Origin: Planctomycetota bacterium
GTDB taxonomy: Bacteria > Planctomycetota > JAJSAM01 > JAJVHW01
Direction: 5' to 3'
NCBI GenBank assembly: GCA_021776825.1
Contig: JAJFFG010000087.1
Location: forward strand, 1,850 to 65,849
DNA: 64,000 nucleotides
Shown: in pieces, positions 3 to 35,651 of the stretch
Layout of the letters: each line of letters starts with the position of its first letter
Numbering within the stretch: position 1 is the stretch's first letter
Position numbers and translations under genes: made by a program
Notes under the pieces: generated by a model
What the model saw: only the letters and a program-made list of their open reading frames with translations
Told to the model about the DNA's origin: nothing
The model's database searches: none

Positions 3-608
3 CACCGCCGCGCGCCACTCCGTCCGGCGCCACGTTTGTAGCTCGAGACCCGACGTCAGGAGTCCGCGCACGCCCGCCGCGCGGGCCGGTGCGCGCAGCG
101 CACGGCGCATCCACCAGTCCGGCGCGCTACGCACAGCGACACTGACGACAACGCGACCGCCAGGACGCACGAGGCGCCCCAGTTCGCGAAGCAGACCGGG
201 CAGATCCTCGACGTACGACGCGAGCCCCAACGCGACAGCCGCATTGCACGTGGCGTCGCGCAGCGGTACGGCGCACGCGTCACCGACGATCGCTCTGGCG
301 CCCCCCTCGCGAGCGCGAGCCAGCATGGCGCGCGAACGATCCACCGCGACCACACGACAGCCGCGGTCGCGCAGCGCTCCCGTCAACGGACCGGGTCCGG
401 CGCCGACGTCGACGACGACGGCCCCGGCTGGCAGATCGAGCCAGTCGAGTGCGATCTCGCGCCGACGTCCTAGGAAGTGCCGATGCCACAGCCCACCGCC
501 CGGAGCGCGCTCGCCACCATATCCCGACACCGTGCGTTCGAAGTACTCGGGAGCACTGTCGCTGGATGCCACTGGAGGCGCGCCGAGTCGGTCCACCGAG
601 CGCGTCAC
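3..608 (-). CDS. Class I SAM-dependent methyltransferase (3' end runs off the window)
   Basis: Manual translation of the minus strand (not in ORF track because no stop in window): VVVDVGAGPG motif I, VVAVDRSRAML, ELGRLVRPGGRVVV. GTG at 608 overlaps the arfB TGA; alternative GTG at 572. Confidence 0.8.
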   Translation of the reverse strand, partial: MTRSVDRLGAPPVASSDSAPEYFERTVSGYGGERAPGGGLWHRHFLGRRREIALDWLDLPAGAVVVDVGAGPGPLTGALRDRGCRVVAVDRSRAMLARAREGGARAIVGDACAVPLRDATCNAAVALGLASYVEDLPGLLRELGRLVRPGGRVVVSVAVRSAPDWWMRRALRAPARAAGVRGLLTSGLELQTWRRTEWRAAV

Positions 609-1033
609 TCGCCCGACGGCGGACGACGATTCCGCTTCACGTCACCGCGCTGCTTCTTGGCCTTCAGACGCCGTTCGCGAGAACCGCGCGTGGGCCGCGT
701 CGCCCGCCGCCGCCGCGGCCGATGAAGGGCGGTGGCGAGCATCTCGCAGAGTCGGTCGAGGGCCGCTTGCACATTGCGTTCGCGGGTCCGCTCGGACTCC
801 GCGTGCACCACGATCTCGCCGGCCGTCGTCAGACGCGATGCGAGCCGTTCACGAATGCGTTCACGATCGAAGTCCGATAGGCCGGGGATGTCCGCGATCG
901 CGATCCGCGCCACCGCCTTCGTCTCGACCTTGTTCACGTTCTGCCCACCCGGACCGCCGCTGCGCGCGAACGTGATACGCACGGCATCCTCGGGAAAGGG
1001 CAGACCGGGCCGCAAGCGGCGCGAAGCGGGCAT
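605..1033 (-). CDS. arfB: Alternative ribosome-rescue peptidyl-tRNA hydrolase ArfB
   Basis: SGGPGGQNVNKVETK GGQ motif and basic C-tail RRATRPTRGSRERRLKAKKQRG; 142 aa. Confidence 0.93.
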   Translation of the reverse strand: MPASRRLRPGLPFPEDAVRITFARSGGPGGQNVNKVETKAVARIAIADIPGLSDFDRERIRERLASRLTTAGEIVVHAESERTRERNVQAALDRLCEMLATALHRPRRRRATRPTRGSRERRLKAKKQRGDVKRNRRPPSGE

Positions 1034-20235: not shown

Positions 20236-22533
20236 CTACCGGCCGCGCTTCTCCGCGCGCTCTCGTGACTTGTGGAACTTGGAGAGATTGCGCAGCGCCT
20301 TCTTGCCCAGGCGGTTGGCGCGCCGCATCGCGGCATCCCGCTCGAACGACTGGCCGGTGCTGCGCGCCAGTGCGATCGACTGCTGCATCTGCGCCTGAGC
20401 CACGCGAGCCCGCTTCTGGTTGCGCTTCCTCTGACGCGACAGTTTCTGCTGCTTCGCCAACGGGAACGTGCCCGGTGCGCCCAGATCGATGGCCTGCGCA
20501 ACGATGTCGAGCTGCGCCGCCAGGAGGAGGTTCTCGATCGCCGTGATGCGATCGAGATCGCTGACATCCGAGATGAGGGCCTTGGCCTCGTCGAGATCCG
20601 TCAGCGCTCGGTCGACGGCGATGAAGTTGATGGTCAGTGTCTGGATCCGCTCTGGGTCAGTCGCGCCGCTCACGAAGTTCGGCACCTCGGTGCGGAAGCG
20701 AGGATCGACCCCGCTCAGCAACGCCATCGCGTTGACGACCTCGTTGAGTCCCAGATCGTAGAACGCCACCCCACCGAGGGAGCCGACGGGGTTCGTCGAG
20801 TTCAGCGGGTTCGCGCCGTTCGGATCGATGGCTCTGTAGAGGTGCGGTCGACCGTCGGTGGAGCCACCGATCAGGTCCTGGAGCACGTCGTTGTCCGACG
20901 ACGACGAGACCGCGATGCGGAGCTTGCTCGCGGGGTTCAGCGAGTTCGCGCGGGAGTGGTAGGGGATCGCGACGGTCGGCTGCGCGAACCCGTGCGGGAA
21001 CGCCTGCTCGACCACGAAGAACCCGGAGCCGTCATTGCGCAGGATCTTCACGTCGACGACGGCGCCGAGCACGAGATCGAGGTCACCGTCGTTGTCGCAG
21101 TCGATGGCGCCACCGCCCTGGCTCCACTTGACCTCGAGCTCCTGCTTGAGAACCATCGTCGGCACGCCGCCGACGTTGCCCTCGTTGTGGAAGATCTGCA
21201 CGCCCTGCGGCGTGACGTTGACGAGGTCCTTGTCGCCGTCGAGGTCGAGGTCGCCGCCCAGCGTGTACGTGGTGACGCCTGAGTACAGCGGTCCGGCCGC
21301 CCCCGAGTCGAAGAGCTGCACACCCGGGTGGAGACCCAGCACGGGTGTGATGTCCGCCAGCGTCGTCGCCTCGGTGTTGCCGAGGACGTAGTTGTCGGCG
21401 TCACCGCCGGGCGCCAGCGTGATGCCGGTAACCGTGACGGTCTTGTCCTCACCGACGAACGCGTCGTCGAACGTGCCGGGATCGGACGTGATGGTGAGGA
21501 CGTCGCTCCCGACGCGATCGTCGATCAGGGTCACCGTCGCGTCCGTCGTGCCGTCGACAGGCTTGTCGTCTGCGGTGATCGAGACGGTGAGCGTGCGGAT
21601 CGTGATCGAGCCGGTCGACGTCGGGACGAAGGTCACAAGGTAGTTGCTGACCTGCCGGCCCGGGCCCGGAGTGACGACACCGGTCGGCGTGAGCGTCTTG
21701 GTCGGCGAACCGGCGACGAGTTTGTCGGTGTAGATCTGCGTGAAGGCGAACGTGTCGCCGGCGAAAATTGTCCCGCTCGTGAGCAGCGGCAGTACGGGCG
21801 AGAGGTTGGTCGCGTCGTAGACCTTCGTGGCCGTCTGCGCCGTGATGTCGATCGGGTGCGGCGTGATCGTGCCAGTGCCCTGCGCGGACGTGTTCTGCAG
21901 CGCGTAGTTCCCCGCGTCGGCTCCGGCTAGGCCAAGGCCCGCCGCTGTCGCCGTCTGCCCGGCGCCCTCGTTCTCGCTGCCGTACGCCATCGACGTGAAG
22001 GTGGCCGTGACGTCGTCTCCGGCCTCCTTGCCGACGACCGAGAGCGAGCCGGTCGTGGTGGCGCTCCCGTCGTACTCCTTGCCATCCGGCACGAACTCGA
22101 TCGTGAGCGGCTTCGGGTCGATGTCGACGGTGCTGAAACTGACGTGAGTGCCCAGATTGAGCCCGAAGTGGGGAGGAGCGAACGTGTCGGAAGACGGGTT
22201 CGACGAGAACGCGAACACCGATCTTCCCGGGCCTGCCGCGGCGTCCCCCGGAGGAAGGAGGACGGCGTTCAGGAGGACGACTTCCGTGGTCCCTTCCACG
22301 TCGCCGACGACCTGGATGTTCGTCACCTGCGCGCTGACGTTCGAGTCCCCATTGTAGTCGCGGGGCGTCACGTCGTACGTCACCGTCACGGCTTCCGAGC
22401 CCGCGTAGGCCGACGATGGTGCCGCGGAGAACACTCCCGCCGCGAGGACCAGCGCGCCGAAGAACCCACGTGCGAAGGAGGCCCTTCGACGGACTCTCGA
22501 CACGCGTTGGACCAGATGTGTTCGGTTCGACAA
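20236..22533 (-). CDS. Secreted adhesin-like protein with YDG/MBG-type repeats, FG-GAP/VCBS motifs and a basic helical C-tail
   Basis: KEYDGS, KVYDAT, DADNYVL repeats; GDLDLDGDKDLV, DCDNDGDLDLV; TTG start 22533 after GAGGAG. Confidence 0.75.
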   Translation of the reverse strand: MSNRTHLVQRVSRVRRRASFARGFFGALVLAAGVFSAAPSSAYAGSEAVTVTYDVTPRDYNGDSNVSAQVTNIQVVGDVEGTTEVVLLNAVLLPPGDAAAGPGRSVFAFSSNPSSDTFAPPHFGLNLGTHVSFSTVDIDPKPLTIEFVPDGKEYDGSATTTGSLSVVGKEAGDDVTATFTSMAYGSENEGAGQTATAAGLGLAGADAGNYALQNTSAQGTGTITPHPIDITAQTATKVYDATNLSPVLPLLTSGTIFAGDTFAFTQIYTDKLVAGSPTKTLTPTGVVTPGPGRQVSNYLVTFVPTSTGSITIRTLTVSITADDKPVDGTTDATVTLIDDRVGSDVLTITSDPGTFDDAFVGEDKTVTVTGITLAPGGDADNYVLGNTEATTLADITPVLGLHPGVQLFDSGAAGPLYSGVTTYTLGGDLDLDGDKDLVNVTPQGVQIFHNEGNVGGVPTMVLKQELEVKWSQGGGAIDCDNDGDLDLVLGAVVDVKILRNDGSGFFVVEQAFPHGFAQPTVAIPYHSRANSLNPASKLRIAVSSSSDNDVLQDLIGGSTDGRPHLYRAIDPNGANPLNSTNPVGSLGGVAFYDLGLNEVVNAMALLSGVDPRFRTEVPNFVSGATDPERIQTLTINFIAVDRALTDLDEAKALISDVSDLDRITAIENLLLAAQLDIVAQAIDLGAPGTFPLAKQQKLSRQRKRNQKRARVAQAQMQQSIALARSTGQSFERDAAMRRANRLGKKALRNLSKFHKSRERAEKRGR

Positions 22534-22930
22534 GGACTCTCTCCTCGGTGTCACGACAGACGGTCGCCAGGGACCGCATCGTGTGTCTCTCGCCCGGCGG
22601 AGCGCGCAGTGCGCGCTCCAGCCAGGACTCTCTTCTGCCCGCACCGAGAGATGAATTCTGGGGCCGGACTCCCTGTGTCGAATTCGCACAACGGGCCTCT
22701 GAACGGCCCGCGAGCGCGTTGCGGAAACGCGACAGTCGAGGCCCACGATCATGCGTCGCCGTGCGCGCGTCGCAGGCGGCGCGCACTCTTTTTCGGGTTC
22801 AGTAGAACCCCTCCGCGACTCGCGTCGTTTGTGACTCCCATGACGAAGAGAGATCACTGTCAGCGCCGACACGAGAGCGGCGAGAGTGAGGGGCGCGACC
22901 CTCCGGCGTAGACGAGATCCGTACGGATCC

Positions 22931-22996: not shown

Positions 22997-23235
22997 CTAG
23001 CCCGGGTTGTTCACGAGGGTCGCGCGTTGCGTGACGATGAACCGTGTGAACGCCAACTACGGCGCGCATGCGGCGACTCGCGGACGCCCGTCGAGGACCG
23101 TCCTGAGCAAGGACAGAGTGCCGAGATCAAGGAGGGGCTGCGAACGCGACGTAGGAGCGTCTCGGAGCAGGCGCGACGCGGAGATCGGTGCTCTGGACCG
23201 CTCAGGCGCGTGACTCACTGAACGATGCGGGCTAG
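22997..23235 (+). mobile_element. About 240-bp MITE-like repeat, copy B
   Basis: Imperfect TIRs CTAGCCCGGGTTGTTCA / TGAACGATGCGGGCTAG; internal GAGATCAAGG...GAGATC. Confidence 0.75.
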
Positions 23236-23478
23236 TTCCGTCGAGGAACCGTCACGTCACACCCGCGGGTGTGAGTGCAGCTTCGGCGGGACACCACTCG
23301 CACGGCCCGCGGCCGGGAACCCGCATCGACGCCGCCCAACCGGAATGAGCCCGCCCGACCGGAATGAGGTTGTCGGCGAACGCGCGCGCCCATCGATGCT
23401 CCAGGGCAGTGCCGGACGGCACTACTCCCCTGCGGCACCACGGAGTCACCTGGACTGCCCCCCACTGCCGAGGTTCAC

Positions 23479-23775
23479 CATGCCACGCCCCATCACCTTC
23501 AGCACCTCGCCCGCCGGAGCCGACCGCGTCTACCACGTGTCAGAGGACGACGTCCGCGTCGTGCTCAGCCGACTCCCGCCCGAGACGACAAAGCGACTCC
23601 GCGCGGTCCACTTCAACGACCGCCGCCGTGGCGCGCGCGTGCTCGGGTACGTCAGTCGCGGACGCCGTGAGATCGCCCTCTGTGCGCTCCCGCCCCGCGT
23701 GAGCCTCGCGCGTTTCCTCGTGCGCGGTCAGTCGCCCCGTCAGTTCGGCGCGCAGCGCGGCACGCAGTGGCCGAT
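23479..23775 (+). pseudogene. N-terminal fragment of a hypothetical protein (MPRPITF...GTQWP)
   Basis: Protein-like sequence after GAGG RBS degenerates abruptly at about 23775; wrongly merged with aspA in the ORF track. Confidence 0.45.
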
Positions 23776-23995
23776 AGACGTGCCAGACCGTCCCGAGATC
23801 GGTGCCGCTCGAGCACCGCGTCTCCTCTCCCAGAGTCGTCTCCACCATGGTGGTCCCCGGTGGCACGTCAATCCGCACGCGGAGCGACGGACAGCCGAAG
23901 CGGCAGACGAGAACCAGCGCGGCGACGCACGCAAGGACAACGAAGCACGTCCAGATCGACGCACGAGGCGACACGGAGGAGCGGTCGAGGTTCAT
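23776..23995 (-). pseudogene. N-terminal fragment of a membrane-anchored hypothetical protein
   Basis: MNLDRSS...IWTCFVVLACVAALVLVCRFG TM segment, truncated where it meets the convergent fragment. Confidence 0.35.
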
Positions 23996-24085
23996 GACGT
24001 CGACCAACGGTACCGCCGACCGAGGGCAACGCCGACGACCACGAAGCGAATACGATGTCGCGGCCCCTCCGACCCGGAGATCCCG

Positions 24086-25951
24086 ATGACCGACATGACC
24101 GCCGCCCTCGCCCGCGCCGACGTCTTCCACCGGCTCGAGCCCGAGGCGCTCGCGGCACTCGGCAGCATCGCCACACGCGAGGCGATCCCGGCCGGCACCG
24201 AGCTCTTTCGACAGGGGGAGCCGCGTGAGCGGTTGCGCGTCATCGAGGCCGGCCTGGTCGAGATCAAGCGCGGGAGCGGCTCCGGCGACGCGGTGTTCCT
24301 GATCTCGTACGGACCGGGCGACGTGCTCGGGGAAGGCATGCTGCTCGGCGGATACGTCCACAGCACGACAGCGACGACCGCGGTCTCGACGTCGATCCTC
24401 TGCATCGAGCGCAGCGCGTTGGAGGAGCGACTCGCCGTCGACCCCGCGCTGCGGGCGGACGTTCTCGCCGGCATCCTGGAGCAGGTGGCCGGCCGGCTCG
24501 ATCAGGTGTCGCCCCACGCCGCGCCCGTGCACGTGAAACTCTCGAGCGGCGAGACGCGCCGTGAGCACGATCTGATCGGCGATCGCGACGTGCCCGTCGA
24601 GGCCTACTACGGCGTGCAGACCCTGCGTGGGATCGAGAACTTCCATATCACGGGCATCCCGCTCTCGACGTATCCCGATCTCGTCGCAGCGCTCGCCATC
24701 GTGAAGCGCTCCGCGGCGCGGGCGAACGCCGCGTTCGGTCAGATCCCGCAGGACGTCGCTGACGCGATCGTCGCCGCATGCGACGAGATCATCGGCGGCA
24801 AGCTGCACAACCAGTTCGTGCTCGACATGATCCAGGGCGGCGCCGGCACCTCCACGAACATGAACGCGAACGAGGTCATCGCCAACCGCGCGCTCGAACT
24901 GCTCGGTCACGAGAAGGGCGACTACGAGCACTGCCACCCGAACAACCACGTCAACTGCTCGCAGTCGACCAACGACGCGTACCCCTCGTCGCTCAAGCTC
25001 GCGATGGCGATGGGCAACCGTCGGCTCACCGCCGAACTGCGCCTGCTCGTTCAGGCGTTCCGCGAGAAGGCGGCTACGTTCGGCGACGTCGTCAAGATGG
25101 GACGCACGCAGCTGCAGGACGCCGTGCCGATGACCCTGCGTCAGGAGTTCGACGCGTTTGCGACGAGCCTCGCCGAGAACCTGCGACCGCTTGACGCAGT
25201 GACGTCGAGCTTCCTGACGTTGGTCAACATGGGCGGCACGGCGATCGGAACCGGGCTGAACGCGCCCGAGGGCTTCCCCGCACGCGTGGCGCAGGAGCTC
25301 GCCGAGTACACGGGAATGCACTTCCAACCGGCCGCCGACCTGGTCGAGGCGACCCAGGACACGCAGTCCTTCGTGCTCTACTCGTCGTCGCTCAAGAGCC
25401 TGGCCGTGAAGCTCTCGAAGATCTGCAACGACCTGCGGCTGCTCTCATCCGGGCCGCGTTGCGGGTTCGGTGACATCCGACTCCCAGGCGTCCAGCCCGG
25501 CTCGTCGATCATGCCGGGCAAGGTCAATCCAGTGATCCCCGAGGTCGTCAACCAGGTGGCGTTCCGCGTCATCGGCAACGACCTGACCGTGACCATGGCC
25601 GCAGAAGCCGGACAGCTCCAGCTGAACGCATTCGAGCCCGTCATCGCCACCGCCGTGCTCGAGTCGATCGAGATGCTGAAGAACGCCGCGTCCACGCTGC
25701 GCCAGCACTGCGTCGTCGGCATCGAGGCAAACCGCGAGCGGTGTCGCGAGAACATCGAGCGCTCGATCGGGATCGTGACCGCGCTCGTGCCGATCCTGGG
25801 CTACGGCCCGTCGACGGAGATCGCCGCCGAAGCCCTCGCCTCGAACCGCGGCGTGGTCGAGCTCGTCCGCGAGCGCGGTCTGCTCGACGAAGCGCAGATC
25901 ACGGAACTGCTGTCACCCGCGAACATGGCGAACGATCACCGCCGAGTGTGA
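24086..25951 (+). CDS. aspA: Aspartate ammonia-lyase with N-terminal cyclic-nucleotide-binding domain
   Basis: YYGVQTLRG, QGGAGTSTNMNANEV, KMGRTQLQDAVP, GSSIMPGKVNPVIPE. N-terminal LFRQGE...GPGDVLGE...HSTTATT cNMP fold. ATG 24086 after GGAG. Confidence 0.92.
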   Translation: MTDMTAALARADVFHRLEPEALAALGSIATREAIPAGTELFRQGEPRERLRVIEAGLVEIKRGSGSGDAVFLISYGPGDVLGEGMLLGGYVHSTTATTAVSTSILCIERSALEERLAVDPALRADVLAGILEQVAGRLDQVSPHAAPVHVKLSSGETRREHDLIGDRDVPVEAYYGVQTLRGIENFHITGIPLSTYPDLVAALAIVKRSAARANAAFGQIPQDVADAIVAACDEIIGGKLHNQFVLDMIQGGAGTSTNMNANEVIANRALELLGHEKGDYEHCHPNNHVNCSQSTNDAYPSSLKLAMAMGNRRLTAELRLLVQAFREKAATFGDVVKMGRTQLQDAVPMTLRQEFDAFATSLAENLRPLDAVTSSFLTLVNMGGTAIGTGLNAPEGFPARVAQELAEYTGMHFQPAADLVEATQDTQSFVLYSSSLKSLAVKLSKICNDLRLLSSGPRCGFGDIRLPGVQPGSSIMPGKVNPVIPEVVNQVAFRVIGNDLTVTMAAEAGQLQLNAFEPVIATAVLESIEMLKNAASTLRQHCVVGIEANRERCRENIERSIGIVTALVPILGYGPSTEIAAEALASNRGVVELVRERGLLDEAQITELLSPANMANDHRRV

Positions 25952-26230
25952 TCAGCGAACGTCGTCGGCAGAGCACACGTATCCGCCGCGCCCGGCGGCG
26001 ATCTCGTCAAGCATCTGGCCGATGTCCGCAGTCGGGCATCCGTACGAAGCCGCATCGCGCACCGCGAGCAGCTTTGCCTCGACCGTCTCGTAAGGGCGCT
26101 CGCGACACGCCGTCGCGAGCACCTGCCGCACCCATGCGGCGACGGTCATGCCCTCGATCGCCGCGATCCGCCGAAGCTCCGCATACTGGTCGTCCGGCAG
26201 CAGCACGTGCAGGCTCTTGGTCATGTGCAC
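25952..26230 (-). CDS. Ribbon-helix-helix (CopG-like) antitoxin with no adjacent toxin
   Basis: TKSLHVLLPDDQYAELRRIA...TVAAWVRQ...PTADIGQMLDEI resembles antitoxins normally paired with PIN toxins. Confidence 0.65.
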   Translation of the reverse strand: MHMTKSLHVLLPDDQYAELRRIAAIEGMTVAAWVRQVLATACRERPYETVEAKLLAVRDAASYGCPTADIGQMLDEIAAGRGGYVCSADDVR

Positions 26231-26278: not shown

Positions 26279-28714
26279 TTACCGCCCTGCGGCGTCGCGG
26301 AGCGTCGGGTCACCCTCGCGGATCTCGATGTGACGGTTGCCCTGGACGTCCTCGAAGGTCTGGCTCGCGCCGCTCGGCCAATGGACGGTCAAGCGCGCGA
26401 GCTTGCGGGCGTCACCGAGACCGAGGTGGAGATCGGTCGGGCCCTGGGCGTTGTTGCCGTTGTGCGGGTAGACCTCGCGGCGGAGGGTGCGACTCGCGAC
26501 CTCGGCGATGACGCGCGCGCCGATGCCGGCGGTGTTCGACGTGTCGCCGCGCAGGGTGACGGTCAGCCAGCCCGCCTCGGGGAAGCGGTTCTCGAAGACG
26601 AGCAGCGCGCCGCCGCCCATCTGGCGCACGAGCAGATCCTGCATGCCGTCCTGCGTGACGTCGACGGCGATGACAGAACGGCCGTCGCCCTTGCTGTCCG
26701 TCGCGGAGAGCGTCGAGATGTCGTGGAATGCGGTGCCGCCGACGTTCAGGTACGTTCGGTTGCGTTCGTACGAGCTCAGGTTGAAGCCGCGCGTCGCGAT
26801 CATCCACGGGTTCTCGACCCACCACTCGTCGAGGCGCTTGTCCGGCAGACGCGGGGCCGGGACCATCGCCGCGCGGTTCCAAGGCTGTGACACGACAGCC
26901 TGCCAGAGACACGCTCAGCCGTCGGGCTCGTGCGGGTCGACGCTCATGAAGCCGGCCGTCGCGTGGAGGTCCAGCCAGCCGTCGCCATCGAGGTCGGTGA
27001 ACACCGCGCCATATGCCCAGCCGACGTCCTGCAGACTCAGGCGTTCGGCCAGCCGCTCGAAGCGCGGAGCTCCGTCCTGGTCGGCCGCGTTGCGATAGAG
27101 CTCGGTGCCGGTGACGAACCGCTTCATGCGCGTCATCACCTCGGGCGGGTACGCGTCCTCAGCGAGGTTCTCGAGGATCCGCCGACCGGCCTTGCTGAAC
27201 ATGTTCGCCGTGTAGAGATCCGTGCGGCCGTCGTTGTCGATGTCGCCTACGGCGAGACCCATCGAGCCGAAGTCGCCGTCGCCGTTCTCGAGCAGGGTCT
27301 CGGTGAAGGCGCCGTTCGGACCGTTGAGCAAGAGAGCGCCCGGTCCGAACTCGCTGATGACGTAGATGTCCGTGCGTCCGTCTCGGTTCGCGTCGAGGCA
27401 CCCGGCCGTGAACACCGACCGCGTGCCCGCCGTCGCGTTCAACTCCGTCGCCCGCTCGTCGAAGCGCCAGCTGCCACGGTTCAGCCAGAGCTGGTTGCCC
27501 GGCCCCCCAGGGCCGTCGAACCACGACGTCTCGTGCAGCTCGATCTTGTGGGTGTTCGAGTACGTCGCGTAGAGGTCGAGCCGACCGTCGTTGTCGAAGT
27601 CCGCGATCACGCAACCGCTCGCCGCGGCGATGGGCAGCGCGCACTTGTACGAGATGTCCGAGAAGCGGCGGTTGCCGAGGTTCTTGAACGTCTTGTCGCC
27701 CGCGATGAGATCGATGTGGCCGTCGTCGTCGAAGTCGCCCAGAGCGATCGCGCCGTAGGGCAGCAACTCGCGCGGGAGGAGCCACTCCTTGCCGACCTCC
27801 GCGAACGTGCCATCGGCGAGGCCGTCGTAGAGCTGCAGGCCGTTGATGTCGATCACGAGGATCTCGTTCTGCGGATCGTCGTCGAGGTTGGCGGCGTAGA
27901 TGCCCCCGACGGCGCCCTGCATGCGCTTGCCGTCTTCGGCGGTCCACGAGTCGTAGAGCGCCGCGACGTCGAAGCCGCGTTCGGCGGCGACATCAACCAT
28001 CAGCGGAGCGAGCGAAGCCGACTCCGCGGCCTCGAGCACGCGCAGGCCGGAGATCCAGCCCTTCGCCGTCTTGATCTCCTCGACGCCCGGCATGCTGGCG
28101 AGATCGATCTCGAGCTCGAGCGACGCCTCACGCGGACCACCGTCGACACCCACGCCTCGCAGTTGCAGCACGCAGCGACCGGACCAACGCCCCGCGAACT
28201 CACCCGCGGTCACAGGCGTCACCGTGCGAATGCGGAAGCGTGCGGAGACGTCTTCGCCGAAGCGTCCCCGCAACTCCGTGAGGTAGTTGACGAAGCTGCT
28301 CGCGTCGGCCTCGCGCGCCGTCACGCCGGGGTCCCCCGAACGAGAGAGCCGCGTACGGAAGAGGCCCTTCGCCACCTTGCGGTAGTTCACCGGGTCCAGC
28401 ACGACGCCCGCGAACGCGGGCGAGAACGCCGCCTCGATCGCTTCGCCGCGACCCGCGACGAGATGTCGCGCGAGCGAGCCGAGTCCCTCGCGATCAAGCT
28501 TCAGCACGTGATGCTCGATCTCGGCGAGACGTTCGCGCTCCGCTTTCGGAAGCGTCAGGCCGTCCTCGCCGACCGGGACGGTCTCCACATCCGTCGTCGC
28601 GGCAGTTGTCGGCTCTGCGCCCGGCGGATCCGGTGGCGAAACAGGCTCGGAGTCATCACCACACGCGACCAGCGCGGCAGCGCAAACGACAAGACAGATC
28701 AACTGATCGCGCAC
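26279..28714 (-). CDS. CRTAC1-family FG-GAP + ASPIC/UnbV lipoprotein, probably one 811-aa selenoprotein (in-frame TGA at 26915-26917)
   Basis: ORFs 26915-28714 (lipobox LVAC, FG-GAP repeats) and 26279-26893 (YERN, LHLGLG..VHWPSG UnbV) are in the same frame, separated only by TGA-ACLWQAV; a hairpin follows the TGA. Confidence 0.8.
26882..26901 (-). promoter_or_regulatory. Candidate bacterial SECIS hairpin
   Basis: AGGCUGU-CGUGUC-ACAGCCU begins 13 nt after the UGA; loop is 20 nt from the UGA with G at loop position 2. Confidence 0.6.
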
Positions 28715-28761: not shown

Positions 28762-31533
28762 TCAGCGAAGTGCGATCTCGACGGTGGCGATACCGTGCGG
28801 CCGGAGGGGCACCGTGACGCTGGTCTCATCGGCGACCGACAACGGATCACCGCGGCGCTCCAGAAGATCCGTGCGCCACGCGGCCTCGACCGCCGGTCCA
28901 ACCTCGACCGTCGCCTCGCGCGCCTCCGGTCCGAGGTTGAACAGACGCACGATGAGCGTGTCGCGCCCCTCGTGCCGCTTCACCGCGGAGACGCAGACCT
29001 GGTCGTCACGGACACGGACGAAGTCACCCGTGCCCGGCTGCTCGAGATCCTCGACGCCCTGGATGATCGCGGGTGGCAGCCGCCATCGCTGCGAGACGCC
29101 CTTCACTCCCGCAGTCAGCCAGTCGCCGGAGAACGGGAGCAGCGCATAGCGGAACGTGTGCGCTCCGAGACACTGCGCCTCCGGCGTTGGGATCGTCGGT
29201 CCGGCGTTCTGGCTGCGACGCGTCGGGAAGTCGTCGCGCGAGAGCCAGCCGACCGAACGCAGCAGCGTCAGTCCAAGGCCCAAGCGGCCGTCGAGACCGG
29301 CGATGGGTTCGATTTCCGGCAGGCCCTGGTTCAGCAACGCAAGCCCGCCCCCGGCGTCCTGCACCAGCGAGAAGTCGAGCTGCGGGAACGTCTCGGGATG
29401 CGGCTGCACGAAGTCGTCGTCGGACGGCCGCTCGATCGGACGCTCGATCACGTGGAAGTGTCCATCGGAGATCACGGTCGTCGCGTCCGCGAGATCCGGG
29501 AAGATCGCGCGGAGTCGGTGGTCCTCGACATCGTTCTCGAACGACACGGTGACATCGATGAGCGGGGATCCGGCAGTCAGGCAGACCGAGACGGTCACCG
29601 GACAGGCGACCCGGTCCTTCGTGCGGCGGCGGCGCCCCTCGTGGATCGCGCGCGGGAGCTCGATCTCGAACTCCGCCTGCAACGTCGCACGGAAGTCGGT
29701 CTCGCCGACGACGCGGATCTCGCCCGCGAGTCCCTGCGACCGCACGGTCAGCGACTCGGGAGCGGGCGAGTAGTCGTACTCGTCGCCGATGTCCTCGACG
29801 TCCTCGAGCACGTTCAACCCGCGCCAGCGTCGACCGGTCGCGAGCTGCACGACGTCCAGCGTTCCGTCCGGATGGAGCGTCACGCGCACCTCGGCGTTGC
29901 GGAGTGTGGAGCCGTCCACCGTCACGCGATCGACGGGCGGCTTGGCCGTCTCTGTCGGGGCGCGATCCGTGAGCCGGTAGTTGCGGTGACCGAGCGCCGG
30001 CAGATCGCGGGCGACGAACTGGAGGTCGAGGAAGCAGTCCGAGTCCTCGCGCTGACCCGGACGTCGGACGAAGCGATCCTTGAACGCGTCGAGGTAGCCG
30101 TAGAACTTCGCGCGCTGCGCGTCGGTATCGAACATCACGCGATAGTCGATGCCCCAGAAGCGCTCCACGTAGTCGCTGCGCGTGACAACGCACGGGACCT
30201 CACAGCCGTCTTCGTCGACGAGCCGCAGATCCGCCGGATCGACGCCGAGCGGCTGCAGGACCACGAGCCGCTCGAGGACCTCCGTGCGGCGCCGCGGCAG
30301 CGGGTTGGCAACGCACAGCACGGTGTCGCGATCGTCCTTCGCCTCGCGAGCGAACGTCGGCGCGAGATGCTCGAGCTCGCGGACGAGTACCTGCTCCATC
30401 GTCTGATCCACGGCGTCGAAGCGCGGCGCCATGTCGCGGTGAACCTCGTCGATGCTGCACCCGCAGATCGAGTCGTGCGGCTGGTTCTTCAACAGCTCGC
30501 GCCACGCGTGGTCGAAGAGACCCTTCTGCAGGTCGCGACCGTGCACGAAGTGCGTGTATGTGGCGAGCGGCTCCACGATCCCCGAGAGCAACGCCTGCGA
30601 CCGGGCGTTGCGCTGCTTCAGGGGCATGCGCGCCGACCACACCCCCGAGAGGATGTGGAAGTAGCGGCCCTGACAGAGCTCGCCGCGGAAGCGCTTCGTC
30701 GCGATGCCCTTCTCGCGGACCTCGGCCACGTACTCGGCCAGCGACGAGTGCACGAACTCGGTGTCGGGGTACGACTCGCGGAGCGCCGACAGAATGGGCC
30801 CCAGCTCGCGCTGCGGCGGGAAGTGGTCGCAGCCGTTGTTGAGCAGGACGACGTCGCCGTTCGAGAGACGGCCCATCGTGTCGAACAGCTTGCCGACCTT
30901 CTCGACGGCGCCGTCGATCGAGACGTTGCGCCGCGTGTGCGCGTGCCAGATCTCCTCGTGACCGAGACCCGCCGCGTTGCAGTAGCCGCCGCACTGCTGG
31001 ATGGCGAGCACGGTGCTGCCGTCCGGTGCCTCCCACAGGTACTCGTGGCCGGTCTCCTCGAGCTCCGAGCCGTTGCCGCGCGTGTAGACGAAGCTGTCGA
31101 TGCCGGCCTCGCGCAGGAGCTGCGGGATCTGCGCCGGGTGCCCGAACGAGTCGGCCATGTAGCCGACCGACTGCGCAGCGCCGACGCGCGCGCACGTCGC
31201 GTGACCGACGACGAGGTTCCGCACCATCGTCTCCGGACCGATCAAGTACTCATCCGGAAGCATGTACCAAGGGCCGATGCCCAGTGCGCCGCTGGTCACC
31301 AGGTCGCGGATGCGCTGTTCGTCCTCGGGGTGCGCCTCGAGGTAGTCCTCGAGCACAACCGCCTGACCGTCGAGGAGGAAGTGCTCGAAGGCGTCCTCGT
31401 TCTCGAGCGCGTCGAGCACCCGGCGCACCGCGTGCGCCAGGTTCACGCGGAACGTGCTGTACGTCAGATACCACTCGCGATCCCAGTGGGTGTGGGACAC
31501 GACGTACGCCTTGCGCGGCCGAAACTCGCTCAT
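28762..31533 (-). CDS. GH38 alpha-mannosidase (MngB-like)
   Basis: VVSHTHWDREWY, FLLDGQ, IGPWY, GYMADSFGH, NGCDH, NQPHDSICGCS; ATGA overlap with the upstream stop. Confidence 0.92.
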   Translation of the reverse strand: MSEFRPRKAYVVSHTHWDREWYLTYSTFRVNLAHAVRRVLDALENEDAFEHFLLDGQAVVLEDYLEAHPEDEQRIRDLVTSGALGIGPWYMLPDEYLIGPETMVRNLVVGHATCARVGAAQSVGYMADSFGHPAQIPQLLREAGIDSFVYTRGNGSELEETGHEYLWEAPDGSTVLAIQQCGGYCNAAGLGHEEIWHAHTRRNVSIDGAVEKVGKLFDTMGRLSNGDVVLLNNGCDHFPPQRELGPILSALRESYPDTEFVHSSLAEYVAEVREKGIATKRFRGELCQGRYFHILSGVWSARMPLKQRNARSQALLSGIVEPLATYTHFVHGRDLQKGLFDHAWRELLKNQPHDSICGCSIDEVHRDMAPRFDAVDQTMEQVLVRELEHLAPTFAREAKDDRDTVLCVANPLPRRRTEVLERLVVLQPLGVDPADLRLVDEDGCEVPCVVTRSDYVERFWGIDYRVMFDTDAQRAKFYGYLDAFKDRFVRRPGQREDSDCFLDLQFVARDLPALGHRNYRLTDRAPTETAKPPVDRVTVDGSTLRNAEVRVTLHPDGTLDVVQLATGRRWRGLNVLEDVEDIGDEYDYSPAPESLTVRSQGLAGEIRVVGETDFRATLQAEFEIELPRAIHEGRRRRTKDRVACPVTVSVCLTAGSPLIDVTVSFENDVEDHRLRAIFPDLADATTVISDGHFHVIERPIERPSDDDFVQPHPETFPQLDFSLVQDAGGGLALLNQGLPEIEPIAGLDGRLGLGLTLLRSVGWLSRDDFPTRRSQNAGPTIPTPEAQCLGAHTFRYALLPFSGDWLTAGVKGVSQRWRLPPAIIQGVEDLEQPGTGDFVRVRDDQVCVSAVKRHEGRDTLIVRLFNLGPEAREATVEVGPAVEAAWRTDLLERRGDPLSVADETSVTVPLRPHGIATVEIALR

Positions 31534-32489
31534 CGCTCGTGACACCTCCGAAGCAGGTCACCGATCGTCGTCGACGCCATGCACACACTGAGATCCGCGG
31601 CGCCGTAGTAGAGCCGCACGCGCGCGTCCGGAGCGGCGATCCCGTCGTCGTCGAGCGCCACGACCATCCCCGATGGGAAGACGACGTTCGGGACCTGGCC
31701 CACCATCTCGTACGTCTCCCGCGGCTCGAGCACGTTGTCGCGTGTTCGCGCGATGACGCGCGTGGGATCGTCGAGGTCCAGCAGCGCGGCGCCGGCCTGA
31801 TACACGCTCGCTCCGGCGAAGTGGGTGGCGACGCCGTGATAGACGAGCAGCCATCCGTCAGCGGTGCGGACCGGTGGCGGCCCTGCGCCGATCAGCTCGT
31901 CCCAGTAGTGCCAGCGACCCTCCATCACCGGGCCGACGACGCGCCACGTCACGAGGTCACCCGACTCGGCGAGCTCGATCGTCGAGCCACTCGTCGGTGA
32001 GCCCTCGGCCTGCGCGGTGTTCGGGCGCTGGAGACGCAGGTAGCGACCGCCTACGCGCTCGGGGAACAGCACGCCGTTGCGGCGATCGCCCTCCGGGTCG
32101 AACGAGACGAGTTCCAGTCGCTCGAGATCGGTCGTGCGCGCGATCCCGAGACGGCAGCCGTTGTCTGTGTCGGCCGCGAACACCACGTACATCGCGCCGT
32201 CGAGCACCGTGATGCGCGGGTCGTAGATGTGGTGGAGCGTCTCGCCGACTGCATCGAGCCCGGCGATCTCGGAGATGACCGGCCGCACGGTGAAGCGCAC
32301 GCCATCGTCGCTGTCCGCCGGCACCAGCAGGGTGCGACGTCCGCGCGTCTGCACGCGCAGCAGGAGCGACACTCCATCGGGAGTCGACACCGCGCCCGGG
32401 TTGAATGCGGCGGTCGCGTCGATCAGCCGCGGCGGGACGTCCGGTACGTCTTCGCGTGAGATCACCGGGTTCACGGGGCTACGTCTCAT
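31530..32489 (-). CDS. GH130 glycosidase/mannoside phosphorylase
   Basis: AFNPGA, YDPRIT, RNGVLFPE, IGAGPPP, WLLVYHGV, LEPRETYEMVGQVPNVVFPSG, YYGAAD. Confidence 0.9.
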   Translation of the reverse strand: MRRSPVNPVISREDVPDVPPRLIDATAAFNPGAVSTPDGVSLLLRVQTRGRRTLLVPADSDDGVRFTVRPVISEIAGLDAVGETLHHIYDPRITVLDGAMYVVFAADTDNGCRLGIARTTDLERLELVSFDPEGDRRNGVLFPERVGGRYLRLQRPNTAQAEGSPTSGSTIELAESGDLVTWRVVGPVMEGRWHYWDELIGAGPPPVRTADGWLLVYHGVATHFAGASVYQAGAALLDLDDPTRVIARTRDNVLEPRETYEMVGQVPNVVFPSGMVVALDDDGIAAPDARVRLYYGAADLSVCMASTTIGDLLRRCHER

Positions 32490-34458
32490 CGCACTGGGTC
32501 TCATCGCACTGGGTCTCATCGCGCACCATCCCGTCGTCGGTCTCGTCGCGGTCCATCGTGGAGAGGCGTCGCAGCATCTCCCGCACATCGCGCAGGCCGC
32601 CGATCGAGAACCAGAAGATGACGACGACGGCGATGGCAATCTGCACCCAGAAGTACCACTCCCAGTATCTGTTCCAGGACGCATCGCTCACGTCGCCATC
32701 GAACGCCAGGGTGTACGTGGTGCCGACGGCGAACGCGCCGATCCACAGGAACGACCAGATGTAGGTGATGACGTAGAGCACCTTGTCGCGTCGCGAGAAC
32801 TCGGCCGTGAAGCCAAACATCCGAGCGATGCGTCCAACGTGCACGCCCTCGAGGACCTTCTCGCCCTCGATGGCGTGCTTTCCGCGGCGCAGTACGAGGT
32901 CGAAGTCGGGAGGCGGGTTGCGATCGATGATCGAACCGAGCACGTAGAGCGAGGCCGCGACGTACATCCCGAGCGCCCAGACCTCCTGGCCGTTGATCGG
33001 GAAGTCGTTGCCGTACGCACCCTTCCACCACTGCTGCAGGGCGATGCCGCCAACGGCGATCACGGCGCCCGAGACGAGCGCCATCCACGCGCCCAACGCC
33101 GTGCCCCGTCGCCAGTACAGACCGCCGATGATTACGGCTCCGGATCCACCGGCGAAGATCGCGCCCGTGATCGCGAAGAACAGCATGATGTGCGTCGTCT
33201 GCGGCACGAGCCAGCTGAACAGGAAGATGAACACGGCGACACCGAGGATCGACCAGCGCAGCGCGCGAAGATGCTCGGCCTGCGTGTACGGCGTCTTCCG
33301 GAACGGCATCACGACGTCCTGGATGAACATGCTGCCCCACGAGTGCAGGTACGTGTCGTGGGTGCTGACGAACAGGCCGAGCATGACGGCCGCGAAGGAG
33401 CCGAGCAGCACTGGGGGGAGCAGGTGCGTCAGCGTCACGGGGATGCGCATCTGCGTCGCGATCGTCGGGTCGCCGATGGCGTCGAGAGTCACCTGCACGG
33501 ACTGCGCGGTCTGGGCGAAGTCGGCGTGGTGCAGCACGACGTAGCAGAGCGCCGGCACGAGCGTCAGCACGAGCCCCTGCGGGATGCCACGCCAGCCCGA
33601 GAGCATGCCGCCCATCTTGGCCTCATGCGCGCTCTTTGCCGACGTGCTGTACGCCTGTTCACCCTGCCACGCGAGGCGGCTGTACATGAAGCCGACCACG
33701 CCGATCACGAAGTACCAGAAGTTGAAGTCGGGGACGTTCGCTGTGTCGAACGCGTTCGTGAACGAGCGTCCTTCGGGACGATCGCTGAACGTCTCGAACG
33801 CGCGCGGCCAACCGACGAGGATCAGCAGGTAGACGGGCAGAACAACGAAGACGACGTTCGCGAACAGCCCCTGAAGGAAGTCGGTGACCATCACCGCCAC
33901 CTGCCCACCCGCGTAGACCATGAACAGCGAGGGCGCGAGGAGCAGCACCATCAGGATCGGGAAGAGCGAGAGCGTGACGCCCGCGACCGCGAACTCCTCC
34001 GGCAACCCGGTGAAGTACATGAAGAAGCGCGCGCCGACCGCCGGGAAGATCCCGAAGTTGATCAGCCCCGCGACGTACGCGACAACGCCGGCGAACACGC
34101 GGAACCGGCGGCTGTAGCGCCGCTCGAAGAACTCCGGCAACGTAAGGCAGCGCGTCTGCCGGAAGCGGTAGATGACCCAACCCGACGCCGTCACCGCGAG
34201 GATCACGAGACCCATGCTCTGGCCCCACCACGCCATCGTGAAGCCGGCCTCGTAGTTCATCTCGAAGTTGGCGACGACGGTGATCGCGCCGAGCCCGGCC
34301 ATGCCGCCCGCGACGCTGAGCATGTAGCGACCGGCGGTGCGCCCCGCCGCGAGGAAGTCCGCCACGCTGCGCATGTAGCGCTTCGTGACGAACACCGAGG
34401 CGATCAGGCCGACGTAGACGATCCCGAGGATCGCCCAGTCGACAGCGGTCATGTTCAC
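32479..34458 (-). CDS. Sodium:solute symporter
   Basis: DFLAAGR, TLPEFFERRY and many TM helices. Confidence 0.9.
   Translation of the reverse strand: MNMTAVDWAILGIVYVGLIASVFVTKRYMRSVADFLAAGRTAGRYMLSVAGGMAGLGAITVVANFEMNYEAGFTMAWWGQSMGLVILAVTASGWVIYRFRQTRCLTLPEFFERRYSRRFRVFAGVVAYVAGLINFGIFPAVGARFFMYFTGLPEEFAVAGVTLSLFPILMVLLLAPSLFMVYAGGQVAVMVTDFLQGLFANVVFVVLPVYLLILVGWPRAFETFSDRPEGRSFTNAFDTANVPDFNFWYFVIGVVGFMYSRLAWQGEQAYSTSAKSAHEAKMGGMLSGWRGIPQGLVLTLVPALCYVVLHHADFAQTAQSVQVTLDAIGDPTIATQMRIPVTLTHLLPPVLLGSFAAVMLGLFVSTHDTYLHSWGSMFIQDVVMPFRKTPYTQAEHLRALRWSILGVAVFIFLFSWLVPQTTHIMLFFAITGAIFAGGSGAVIIGGLYWRRGTALGAWMALVSGAVIAVGGIALQQWWKGAYGNDFPINGQEVWALGMYVAASLYVLGSIIDRNPPPDFDLVLRRGKHAIEGEKVLEGVHVGRIARMFGFTAEFSRRDKVLYVITYIWSFLWIGAFAVGTTYTLAFDGDVSDASWNRYWEWYFWVQIAIAVVVIFWFSIGGLRDVREMLRRLSTMDRDETDDGMVRDETQCDETQCDET
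32483..32522 (+). repeat. 15-bp tandem repeat GTCTCATCGCACTGG (2.7 copies) at a gene overlap
   Basis: Encodes DETQC repeats in the symporter tail and MRPSA repeats at the GH130 start. Confidence 0.85.
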
Positions 34459-35651
34459 TCGGGGCGTTCCGAGGGCTTGCGCCGTCTGATGCGGCCGTCC
34501 TCGTGGATCGTCAGGAACTCCACCATGTGCCAGCCGAGCGTGACGACGGCCGTAGCGTGGAAGCCTTCGCGCGACGCAGCGATCTCACCCCAGCGCGAGA
34601 AACGATAGTCATCACCGAGGGTGTCATCGAACGGCTCCTGCGTCCCGAGCAAGAGGTTTCGGCCGACGCCGACTCCCTCCTTCGCGAGCACGTCGATGTC
34701 CGACGAGTACGCGCCCGTCCGCCGTCGGTGGCTCCGCTGCGCGTAGTAGATCTGCCGCAGGAGCTGTGACGCGCCTTCCCAGGCCGTCTGGGCGACCGGT
34801 GCGCCCCCGCCCGGCGAGTTCCGAAACTCGACGAGTCCCCAGCGCTCTGGGTAGTGCATGTTGATGACGCCCTGCGGCGACCAAACCCAGTTGTCTTCCG
34901 GCAGGTTCTCGCCGGTCTCGGGATCGACGTCCTTCACGTACCGACCGCCGTCGACGTGCGTGCGCCACTGCACCCGTGAGAAGTTCACGCGCCAGCGATC
35001 GCCCGGGTTCGGGGGACACGGCGCGCCGGCGCCCTGTTGGAGGTCCGCCCAGGGGAACGCGATCTCAACGGTCCAGCCGCGGTCGGTGTCACTCGGGTCG
35101 TTGATGGTGCCGTCGACCTGCACGGCGCTCTTCATGCCCGGCATGTCCCACTGGTGGAGAGCGGGGCCACCGTCGCGGTAGGGCTTTCCGAGGTAGAGAT
35201 CCCACTCCGTGCCGAACGCGTTGATCTCGAACTCGAAGTAGTCGTGAGTGTCCTGGTCGGGGTCGAGGAACACCTCGAAGTCGTTGTCATGGAAGATGAT
35301 CGAATCGCGCTTCGTCCGCGTCGCCCAGACGTGCGGCTCGTCGAGATCGGCGGCGAAGTAGACGTACTCATCATCCCAGAGCATCTTCACGCGGCAGCGA
35401 TGACGCGGCGTCGGCCTCAGGTCGCCTTCGATGTCGACGAAGTCCGCGGTCCACGGCACGGCCTGCCACGCCGCGTCGTCGAGTCGCCCATCGATCACCG
35501 GGGCTGTGGCTGCGCGAGGGCAGGCGTACGTGAGCGGCGCGTACGGCAACGCAGGTGCCTTGAAGGGCGTCCACTCCTTCGCATCCGCGGCGGGAGCACC
35601 GTCGCCGGCGCAACCGCCGAGCACGATCAACAGAGCCACGCCACGCCGCAC
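34455..35651 (-). CDS. Carbohydrate-binding family 9-like (DOMON-type) lipoprotein
   Basis: PVIDGRLDDAAW, MLWDDEYVY, DNDFEVFLDP, YFEFEINA, WRVNFSRVQW, WVWSPQG; LGGC lipobox-like. Confidence 0.85.
   Translation of the reverse strand: MRRGVALLIVLGGCAGDGAPAADAKEWTPFKAPALPYAPLTYACPRAATAPVIDGRLDDAAWQAVPWTADFVDIEGDLRPTPRHRCRVKMLWDDEYVYFAADLDEPHVWATRTKRDSIIFHDNDFEVFLDPDQDTHDYFEFEINAFGTEWDLYLGKPYRDGGPALHQWDMPGMKSAVQVDGTINDPSDTDRGWTVEIAFPWADLQQGAGAPCPPNPGDRWRVNFSRVQWRTHVDGGRYVKDVDPETGENLPEDNWVWSPQGVINMHYPERWGLVEFRNSPGGGAPVAQTAWEGASQLLRQIYYAQRSHRRRTGAYSSDIDVLAKEGVGVGRNLLLGTQEPFDDTLGDDYRFSRWGEIAASREGFHATAVVTLGWHMVEFLTIHEDGRIRRRKPSERPE

Follow-up and report, generated by a model that had tools for sequence, protein, structure and literature searches.

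Introduction

The Escherichia coli gene fdhF encodes a molybdopterin enzyme and carries an in-frame UGA with a hairpin in the coding region directly 3′ of it, the GGUC loop of which lies at +19..+22 after the UGA (NC_000913.3). Recoding of this kind, dependent on SelB and a selenocysteine insertion sequence (SECIS), is well known. Here we describe a gene from an unrelated protein family in which the same kind of recoding is predicted. It lies on the minus strand of a 64,000-nucleotide (nt) stretch of DNA from a Planctomycetota bacterium (contig JAJFFG010000087.1 of assembly GCA_021776825.1, positions 1,850 to 65,849; hereafter the window), and has the domain layout of the CRTAC1/ASPIC-UnbV family, interrupted by one in-frame TGA. 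We consider it very likely, with a probability of about 0.9, that selenocysteine (Sec) is inserted at this TGA, codon 600. The locus shares with fdhF the in-frame UGA, the hairpin within the coding region and, in part of its family, a GGUC loop at a matching distance, but its product is a beta-propeller, probably an exported lipoprotein.

The nearest described proteins in architecture and fold are those of the CRTAC1/ASPIC-UnbV family, represented by 9ETN and by bacterial proteins named 'CRTAC1 family protein' or 'enediyne biosynthesis protein E4/UnbV'. These likewise have FG-GAP repeats followed by a UnbV_ASPIC domain. The window protein has Sec where named CRTAC1-type proteins have ordinary residues, adds an N-terminal alpha+beta domain (residues 57-241), and is only 17-20% identical to 9etn_A. 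Some CRTAC1-like proteins lack Sec and are fused to TPR repeats and a peroxiredoxin; they share the propeller-plus-UnbV core and an x-S-F-F-W-R-Q-V-V motif around the column of interest. In these proteins, however, there is no TGA, the column is A, Q, S, D, E or M, and the redox module is a separate domain.

Among selenoproteins, the resemblances are more limited. The thioredoxin-like selenoprotein Sec.2 and the SO_0444 family Cu/Zn efflux transporter have a U-x-C motif that has been read as a redox or metal site (PMC13188914). The Sec-x-Cys spacing is the same in the window protein, but the folds and families are different, and the window family drops the Cys in one close member and in most distant ones. 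Thioredoxin-fold selenoproteins with UxxC or CxxU motifs differ further: the window protein has no thioredoxin-type Pfam or NCBIfam match, its spacing is U-x-C, and its Sec would sit in a propeller region. The family also stands apart from other SelB/SECIS-dependent selenoproteins in matching no Rfam SECIS model and in having non-Sec homologues that seldom carry Cys at the Sec column.

The recoding is therefore of a known kind, while a CRTAC1-like selenoprotein family appears to be new. Table 1 of a May 2026 review of prokaryotic selenoproteomes holds 119 families and subfamilies, and no FG-GAP, VCBS, ASPIC or CRTAC1 selenoprotein is among them (PMC13188914). The text of that review and the Haft 2022 preprint contain no mention of FG-GAP, VCBS, ASPIC, 'propeller', Planctomycet- or Verrucomicrob-. 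Further, NCBIfam, which has models for most catalogued selenoprotein families, gave no match to the window protein at E <= 0.01. To the extent covered by these sources, a first-pass annotation of the window, made from the sequence alone, was right to place the protein outside the classic selenoprotein families. We found no description of a CRTAC1/FG-GAP/ASPIC selenoprotein in the literature, although candidate lists in the supplements of primary selenoproteome surveys could hold one.

A reading frame that continues through a conserved TGA

An open reading frame (ORF) of 599 codons starts with GTG at 28714 and ends in ...VDPHEPDG-TGA. The frame 28714..26279 is interrupted solely by this TGA (26917..26915). 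Directly after it come A-C-L-W, and the frame resumes as ACLWQAVVSQPW..., running up to a TAA at 26281..26279. Translated with TGA as U, the product has 811 residues and contains U600 and C602. Pfam finds five stretches of FG-GAP_3 (PF13517, 115 bits), FG-GAP (PF01839, 58 bits) and UnbV_ASPIC (PF07593, 56 bits, residues 730-796) in this product, all above cut-offs. FG-GAP repeats followed by UnbV_ASPIC in one chain are a property of the read-through product only. The DNA here is GC-rich and abounds in long open frames (25 overlapping ORFs in 5 kb), and taken by itself the window sequence offers no more than chance would. The weight of the observation comes from comparison across relatives.

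A protein search was made with residues 480-811 as query. Among the best 120 matches kept, 116 terminate at ...DG, immediately ahead of the TGA position, the signature of gene calls halted by a shared stop codon. Relatives sourced from NCBI end at the TGA and go by the name 'VCBS repeat-containing protein' or by 'FG-GAP-like repeat-containing protein, partial'. The first-pass annotation had anticipated that such genes would be mis-annotated by a split at the TGA, and these truncated matches bear this out.

At the DNA level, the frames of relatives were aligned to residues 521-700. TGA occupies the U600 column in 113 of 120 related loci. Eighty of these loci (L041-L120) are the best of at least 582 related stretches found in a scan of species-representative genomes, and 79 of them have the TGA; the exception, L078, is cut by a contig end. 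A further 20 loci (L021-L040) come from 41 related genomes, in which 14 of 20 matches contain exactly one internal TGA. By alignment, 14 of the 20 have it at the U600 column, and L026 shows it as well. Set aside from the counts were L078, three loci in which the column is unaligned (L026, L029, L037) and one of doubtful alignment (L032); in a later alignment, sequences with N or extra stops were also dropped. In the first column alignment the query had Cys at position 600 and TGA was scored as Cys, a possible source of bias; once TGA was scored as X, it occupied the column in 20 of 20 further loci of the window's phylum.

The codon is also kept within the genome of the window itself. A paralogue there (L034, G000:C57:133454-135829), one of the matches from the 41 related genomes, is 37% identical, has TGA at the same column in a U-T-C motif, and has a compensated hairpin (GGCCGU...ACGGCC).

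From 301 sampled genomes of the phylum to which the window belongs, 146 match rows were obtained; 114 contain TGA (109 exactly one) and 32 are stop-free. None of the 146 rows is TAA-only or TAG-only. The TGA form is present in 65 of the 301 genomes, often in two to three copies each, and since at most three candidates were scored per genome these copy numbers are lower bounds. Several genomes (e.g., G006, G208, G140, G192 and G253) each have at least three TGA-containing family members. Carriers beyond this sample are metagenome-assembled genomes labelled Planctomycetota, Verrucomicrobiota, Myxococcota and Acidobacteriota.

A hairpin under selection downstream of the TGA

The window has a hairpin whose stem begins 13 nt past the TGA (Table 1). 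The first-pass annotation described this as a perfect stem of seven base pairs (bp), which holds for the window; in relatives the conserved core is the inner 6 bp, and 31 of 49 distinct sequences lack pairing at the outer A-U. Relatives fall into three hairpin classes, all at nearly the same distance from the TGA. In the close subfamily, a 6-bp stem carries the loop CGUGUC. RNAalifold predicts this hairpin from an alignment of 50 homologues (A2), with three compensatory pairs (C-G to U-A, U-A to C-G) and one broken cell. The distant subfamily has a 6-bp stem with a GGUC loop. Its helix in alignment A3 was named by eye from the same sequences, a choice that favours its pair counts; it is 86% paired with four compensatory pairs, which none of 500 shuffles reaches. 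In a third group (L028, L035 and L039), the peptides after the TGA are unrelated, and still there is a 7-bp stem with a GGUC loop.

Synonymous sites were measured because the stem overlaps conserved codons. At conserved fourfold codons of the close subfamily, third-position entropy is 0.15-0.39 bits inside the hairpin versus 1.3-2.0 bits outside; inside the hairpin of the distant subfamily it is 0-0.57 bits. Such low synonymous entropy reflects selection on the RNA itself. Compensatory pairs and suppressed synonymous variation thus answer in its favour the first-pass proposal to look for a hairpin conserved by covariation. The position of the loop is also conserved: GGUC lies at +18..+21 in the distant subfamily, and the window loop CGUGUC at +21..+26, with GU at +22/+23.

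Selenocysteine machinery and the alternative of read-through without selenium

The genome encodes the machinery that Sec insertion would need, as the first-pass annotation had proposed to check. Matches to selA (493 bits), selB (326 bits), selD (388 bits) and tRNA-Sec (68 bits) are all above cut-off, and ARAGORN finds a tRNA-SeC with anticodon TCA. The selD gene (L002, G000:C111:44576-45502) itself has one in-frame TGA (...SHGGG-U-ACKIPAEDL); a minimum free energy fold downstream of this TGA gave no clear hairpin for comparison. The selA gene (C57:57554-58903) is on the same contig as the paralogue L034, about 75 kb away.

Across the 301 genomes, selA was found in 221, and its distribution follows the TGA form. 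It is present in 63 of the 65 genomes with a TGA form versus 158 of the 236 others (Fisher p = 6.8e-8, a value that overstates the case, related genomes not being independent). Of the 80 genomes that gave no selA match, just two, both incomplete, have TGA forms, and four (G153, G233, G236 and G255) have non-TGA forms only.

This association bears on an alternative in which the TGA is read through without selenium, the hairpin aiding a near-cognate tRNA (Trp, Cys, Arg or Gly) at the UGA. Such programmed read-through would sit well with a column that tolerates D, E, S, A, N, Q and other residues in non-TGA homologues. It would leave the co-occurrence with selA unexplained, as well as the match of the loop (GGUC or GU-containing) and of its distance to the fdhF SECIS. 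Further, a TGA is costly, and if any residue served at this column a sense codon should be more frequent than the 22 of 136 spanning rows in which one is found. We regard selenium-free read-through as improbable.

One chain or two

Another possibility is a conserved split gene, in which the TGA is a true stop and a second protein begins, perhaps by termination-reinitiation, at a GTG eight codons further on (a 204-residue ORF, 26893..26279). Gene callers do report ORFs of 599 and 204 residues, the database matches break off in the same place, and the GTG at Val+8 is nearly invariant (47 of 48 Val codons there). Several observations nonetheless speak for a single chain. The frame is unbroken, with no spacer, in all 113 loci with TGA, and the stop is always TGA, never TAA or TAG.

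The codons between the TGA and the GTG are particularly informative. In the close subfamily (50 sequences), Cys+2 is invariant even as its codon varies (TGT 13, TGC 37), and Trp+4 is invariant too. In the distant subfamily (38 sequences), Ser+1 is kept through AGC, AGT and TCG codons. Residues that persist through synonymous change indicate that the stretch right after the TGA, which a protein starting at the GTG would not include, is translated and under protein-level selection. Both halves of the gene are under purifying selection. A start site would not explain the compensatory changes in the stem, nor would a split gene account for TGA forms accompanying selA.

The predicted fold points in the same direction. 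The read-through chain was modelled with AlphaFold2 from a 108-row alignment, giving a mean pLDDT (per-residue confidence) of 91.6 and a pTM (overall fold confidence) of 0.91, with pLDDT of 93-95 over residues 591-610. The best structural match of this model is the single chain of murine CRTAC1 in crystal structure 9etn_A (Foldseek E 2.9e-25, TMt 0.71). VIA-align gives Z 37.8 and a root-mean-square deviation of 2.6 over 450 residues, covering 237..802 of the model, and the next entries have Z 28.5; a sequence-based search of the PDB gave a weak match to 9etn_A only. Propeller chains align to model residues ~237..710-714, so the TGA at codon 600 falls inside the propeller region of a single CRTAC1-like fold. 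According to the model, the 599-residue product alone would miss strands 653-722 and the UnbV domain. With the Pfam matches, the alignment to 9etn_A across the TGA supports the first-pass proposal of one 811-residue chain holding both CRTAC1-type halves. We consider a split gene very improbable.

That the TGA arose by an error of sequencing or assembly, or by recent pseudogenisation, is highly improbable. The window does come from a metagenome-type assembly, and one independent sample does not bridge 26899..26916. The same TGA nevertheless recurs in the paralogue and in 112 further loci drawn from many assemblies and phyla, purifying selection acts on both halves, and a contig from the likely source run is identical across the site, though not independent. 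Reassignment of UGA to Trp was considered and rejected, as each gene has a single in-frame TGA, always at one column, and database gene calls end there.

Evidence weighing against selenocysteine

A number of observations weigh against decoding of the TGA as Sec, or against particular parts of that reading. The only second sample with this DNA (X2) does not bridge the TGA: its contigs stop at 26898 and restart at 26917, and thus neither confirm nor contradict the codon, and the identical contig from the likely source sample (X1) is not independent of the window assembly. Among sequencing runs with this DNA, no RNA run was found. Two genomes with the TGA form have no selA match, G234 and G251, which are 90% and 84% complete, respectively.

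The hairpin has weaknesses of its own. In the window, a 60-nt fold has a z-score of -0.12, and 86 of 200 shuffles fold at least as well. RNAalifold gives no consensus on the mixed distant-subfamily alignment A3, and an Rfam search of 26700..27000 at E <= 10 returned no match. The hairpin also overlaps conserved codons (W-x-A-V-V), and part of its conservation is at the protein level.

Cys is scarce where it might have been expected. Among 29 spanning non-TGA representatives with a recognisable motif, the Sec column is Cys in two (P0314 and P0364), which count on the side of Sec; the others are E (6), S (5), N (4), A (4), L (2), D (2) and single instances of other residues. Cys is absent from a second set of about 28 non-TGA rows, where D, S, A, Q, E or M fills the column. 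Such scarcity of Cys is atypical for a catalytic Sec. The first-pass annotation had looked to homologues for either Cys or a conserved TGA; the former is mostly lacking, while the TGA itself is strongly conserved. It had counted non-Cys residues as a refutation if they came with no conserved TGA, and the homologues do not show that combination. Lastly, what speaks for a redox or metal role of the residue is its motif position and analogy.

Decoding as Sec nevertheless accounts best for the TGA column, the selection on the hairpin, the co-occurrence with selA and the single fold, and these support the first-pass reading of the codon. The short hairpin, 13-14 nt past the UGA and within the Q-A-V-V-S-Q-P codons, would act as a bacterial SECIS. 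It would recruit SelB carrying Sec-tRNA(Sec), and the ribosome would insert Sec instead of terminating. The product would be one exported chain comprising the N-terminal alpha+beta domain, a CRTAC1-type FG-GAP propeller and a C-terminal UnbV_ASPIC domain. From this we infer that selenium is in fact incorporated at position 600.

The predicted selenocysteine site and its possible role

Among the residues that never vary across 90 Sec forms are U and D(-2), the Y-E-R-N Glu, and a D..R..D set in the following blade; in the numbering of the window protein, invariant positions include D598, E650, D677, R679 and D685. The Sec-Ala-Cys site noted in the first pass generalises to U-x-C in the close subfamily, where 55 of the 56 members seen have it; the exception, L121 (G235:C276), reads U-A-P. 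It does not extend to the distant subfamily, most members of which lack Cys+2 and instead show N, V or D. Within the close subfamily, no Cys-type column other than U600 and C602 is conserved in half or more of the sequences. One close-subfamily variant, protein P0341, has Ser in place of Sec (...PDG-S-T-C-Y-W...).

The AlphaFold2 model places U600 at the very start of a helix (600-609) and C602 in its first turn. A helix N-terminus is the seat of the redox-active Cys or Sec in thioredoxin-fold proteins. By analogy, Sec600, together with Cys602 in the close subfamily, may form a redox-active selenylsulfide or a soft-metal site.

Non-Sec relatives offer a hint in the same direction. Of the best 120 full-length non-Sec relatives, about 22 carry PF00578 or PF08534, in fusions with TPR repeats and a peroxiredoxin/redoxin domain. 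Many non-Sec proteins with this fusion (P0125-P0135 and others) are ~1270-1290 residues long and bear the JGI name 'TadD/peroxiredoxin'. The fusions hint at a thiol-redox setting for the family, and this setting may carry over to the Sec forms.

A role related to carbohydrates is also possible, by analogy with gene neighbours and structural neighbours. Beyond CRTAC1, the latter include propeller lectins that bind GlcNAc, the metal-dependent aldos-2-ulose dehydratase and the lyase YesW.

We further speculate, tentatively, that these exported beta-propeller selenoproteins form a very large family, so far uncatalogued, whose Sec is not a substitute for Cys. Selenium would then have a role other than the usual thiol-like redox one, for example as a ligand for a soft metal or substrate at a position that is a carboxylate or hydroxyl in relatives. 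We hold this to be possible, though less likely than not.

Gene layout and genomic context

The features of the locus are collected in Table 1. The 811-residue product is probably exported as a lipoprotein, judging from its N-terminus, where L-V-A-C at Cys18 resembles a lipobox. The model has a helix at residues 2-16 followed by a low-confidence linker (17-42), and comparable starts, a hydrophobic run with a Cys, occur in relatives. The N-terminal alpha+beta domain has no Pfam or NCBIfam match over residues 57-241, and it is conserved across the close subfamily (e.g., E67 and H68).

Table 1. Features of the candidate selenoprotein gene and its upstream neighbours (window coordinates)
Feature	Coordinates	Strand	Basis
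Read-through coding sequence, 811 codons + TAA, GTG start	26279..28714	-	Translation with TGA=U; single-chain AlphaFold2 model
In-frame TGA, codon 600, predicted to be read as selenocysteine	26915..26917	-	TGA column shared by related loci
Cys602 codon TGT, Cys of U-x-C motif	26909..26911	-	Invariant in 50/50 close-subfamily sequences
Putative N-terminal signal sequence, lipobox-like L-V-A-C, Cys18	28661..28714	-	MRDQLICLVVCAAALVAC followed by GDD; ...AAALVAC then GDD, residues 12-21
N-terminal alpha+beta domain, residues 57-241	27992..28546	-	Secondary structure and high pLDDT in model
FG-GAP beta-propeller, residues ~237-714, TGA within	26573..28006	-	Pfam FG-GAP_3, FG-GAP; structural alignment
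C-terminal UnbV_ASPIC domain, residues 730-796	26327..26527	-	Pfam PF07593, E 3.7e-15; model beta strands 734-799
SECIS-like hairpin	26882..26901	-	5′ arm AGGCUGU 26901..26895; loop CGUGUC 26894..26889; 3′ arm ACAGCCU 26888..26882
GH38 alpha-mannosidase-type gene	28762-31545	-	Directly upstream, same strand
GH130 mannooligosaccharide phosphorylase-type gene	31530-32684	-	Upstream, same strand
CBM9-domain protein gene	34455-35651	-	Further upstream, same strand

The candidate selenoprotein gene begins 47 nt past the stop of the GH38 gene, on the same strand, and because of this the GH38, GH130, CBM9-protein and selenoprotein genes may form one operon. Just downstream, 25952-26230 (-) holds a 92-residue ORF with no Pfam match. 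Elsewhere in the window, an 878-residue ORF with two YDG domains lies at 20236-22872 (-). A lyase of the fumarase/aspartase class (Lyase_1 and FumaraseC_C) lies at 23225-25951 (+). Its longest ORF has a cyclic-nucleotide-binding domain ahead of the lyase part, at residues 320-403, and probably begins with ~300 codons that are not coding.

Implications for the family

Most likely, the CRTAC1/ASPIC-UnbV scaffold supports a large and widespread selenoprotein family, present in several copies per genome and split by gene callers. If so, hundreds of genes would have to be re-annotated, and the selenoproteomes of Planctomycetota and Verrucomicrobiota would be larger than catalogued. A beta-propeller outside the cytoplasm, with vertebrate CRTAC1 as a homologue, would contain selenium. 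Discovery pipelines built on Sec/Cys pairs would have a blind spot, given how seldom Cys occupies the Sec column.

Should it also be true that Sec does not act here as a substitute for Cys, searches based on Sec/Cys pairs would systematically miss whole families. Many members of the Planctomycetota, the Verrucomicrobiota and the window's phylum would each possess several such genes, and the selenium site would provide a first functional handle on the enigmatic CRTAC1/ASPIC-UnbV family.

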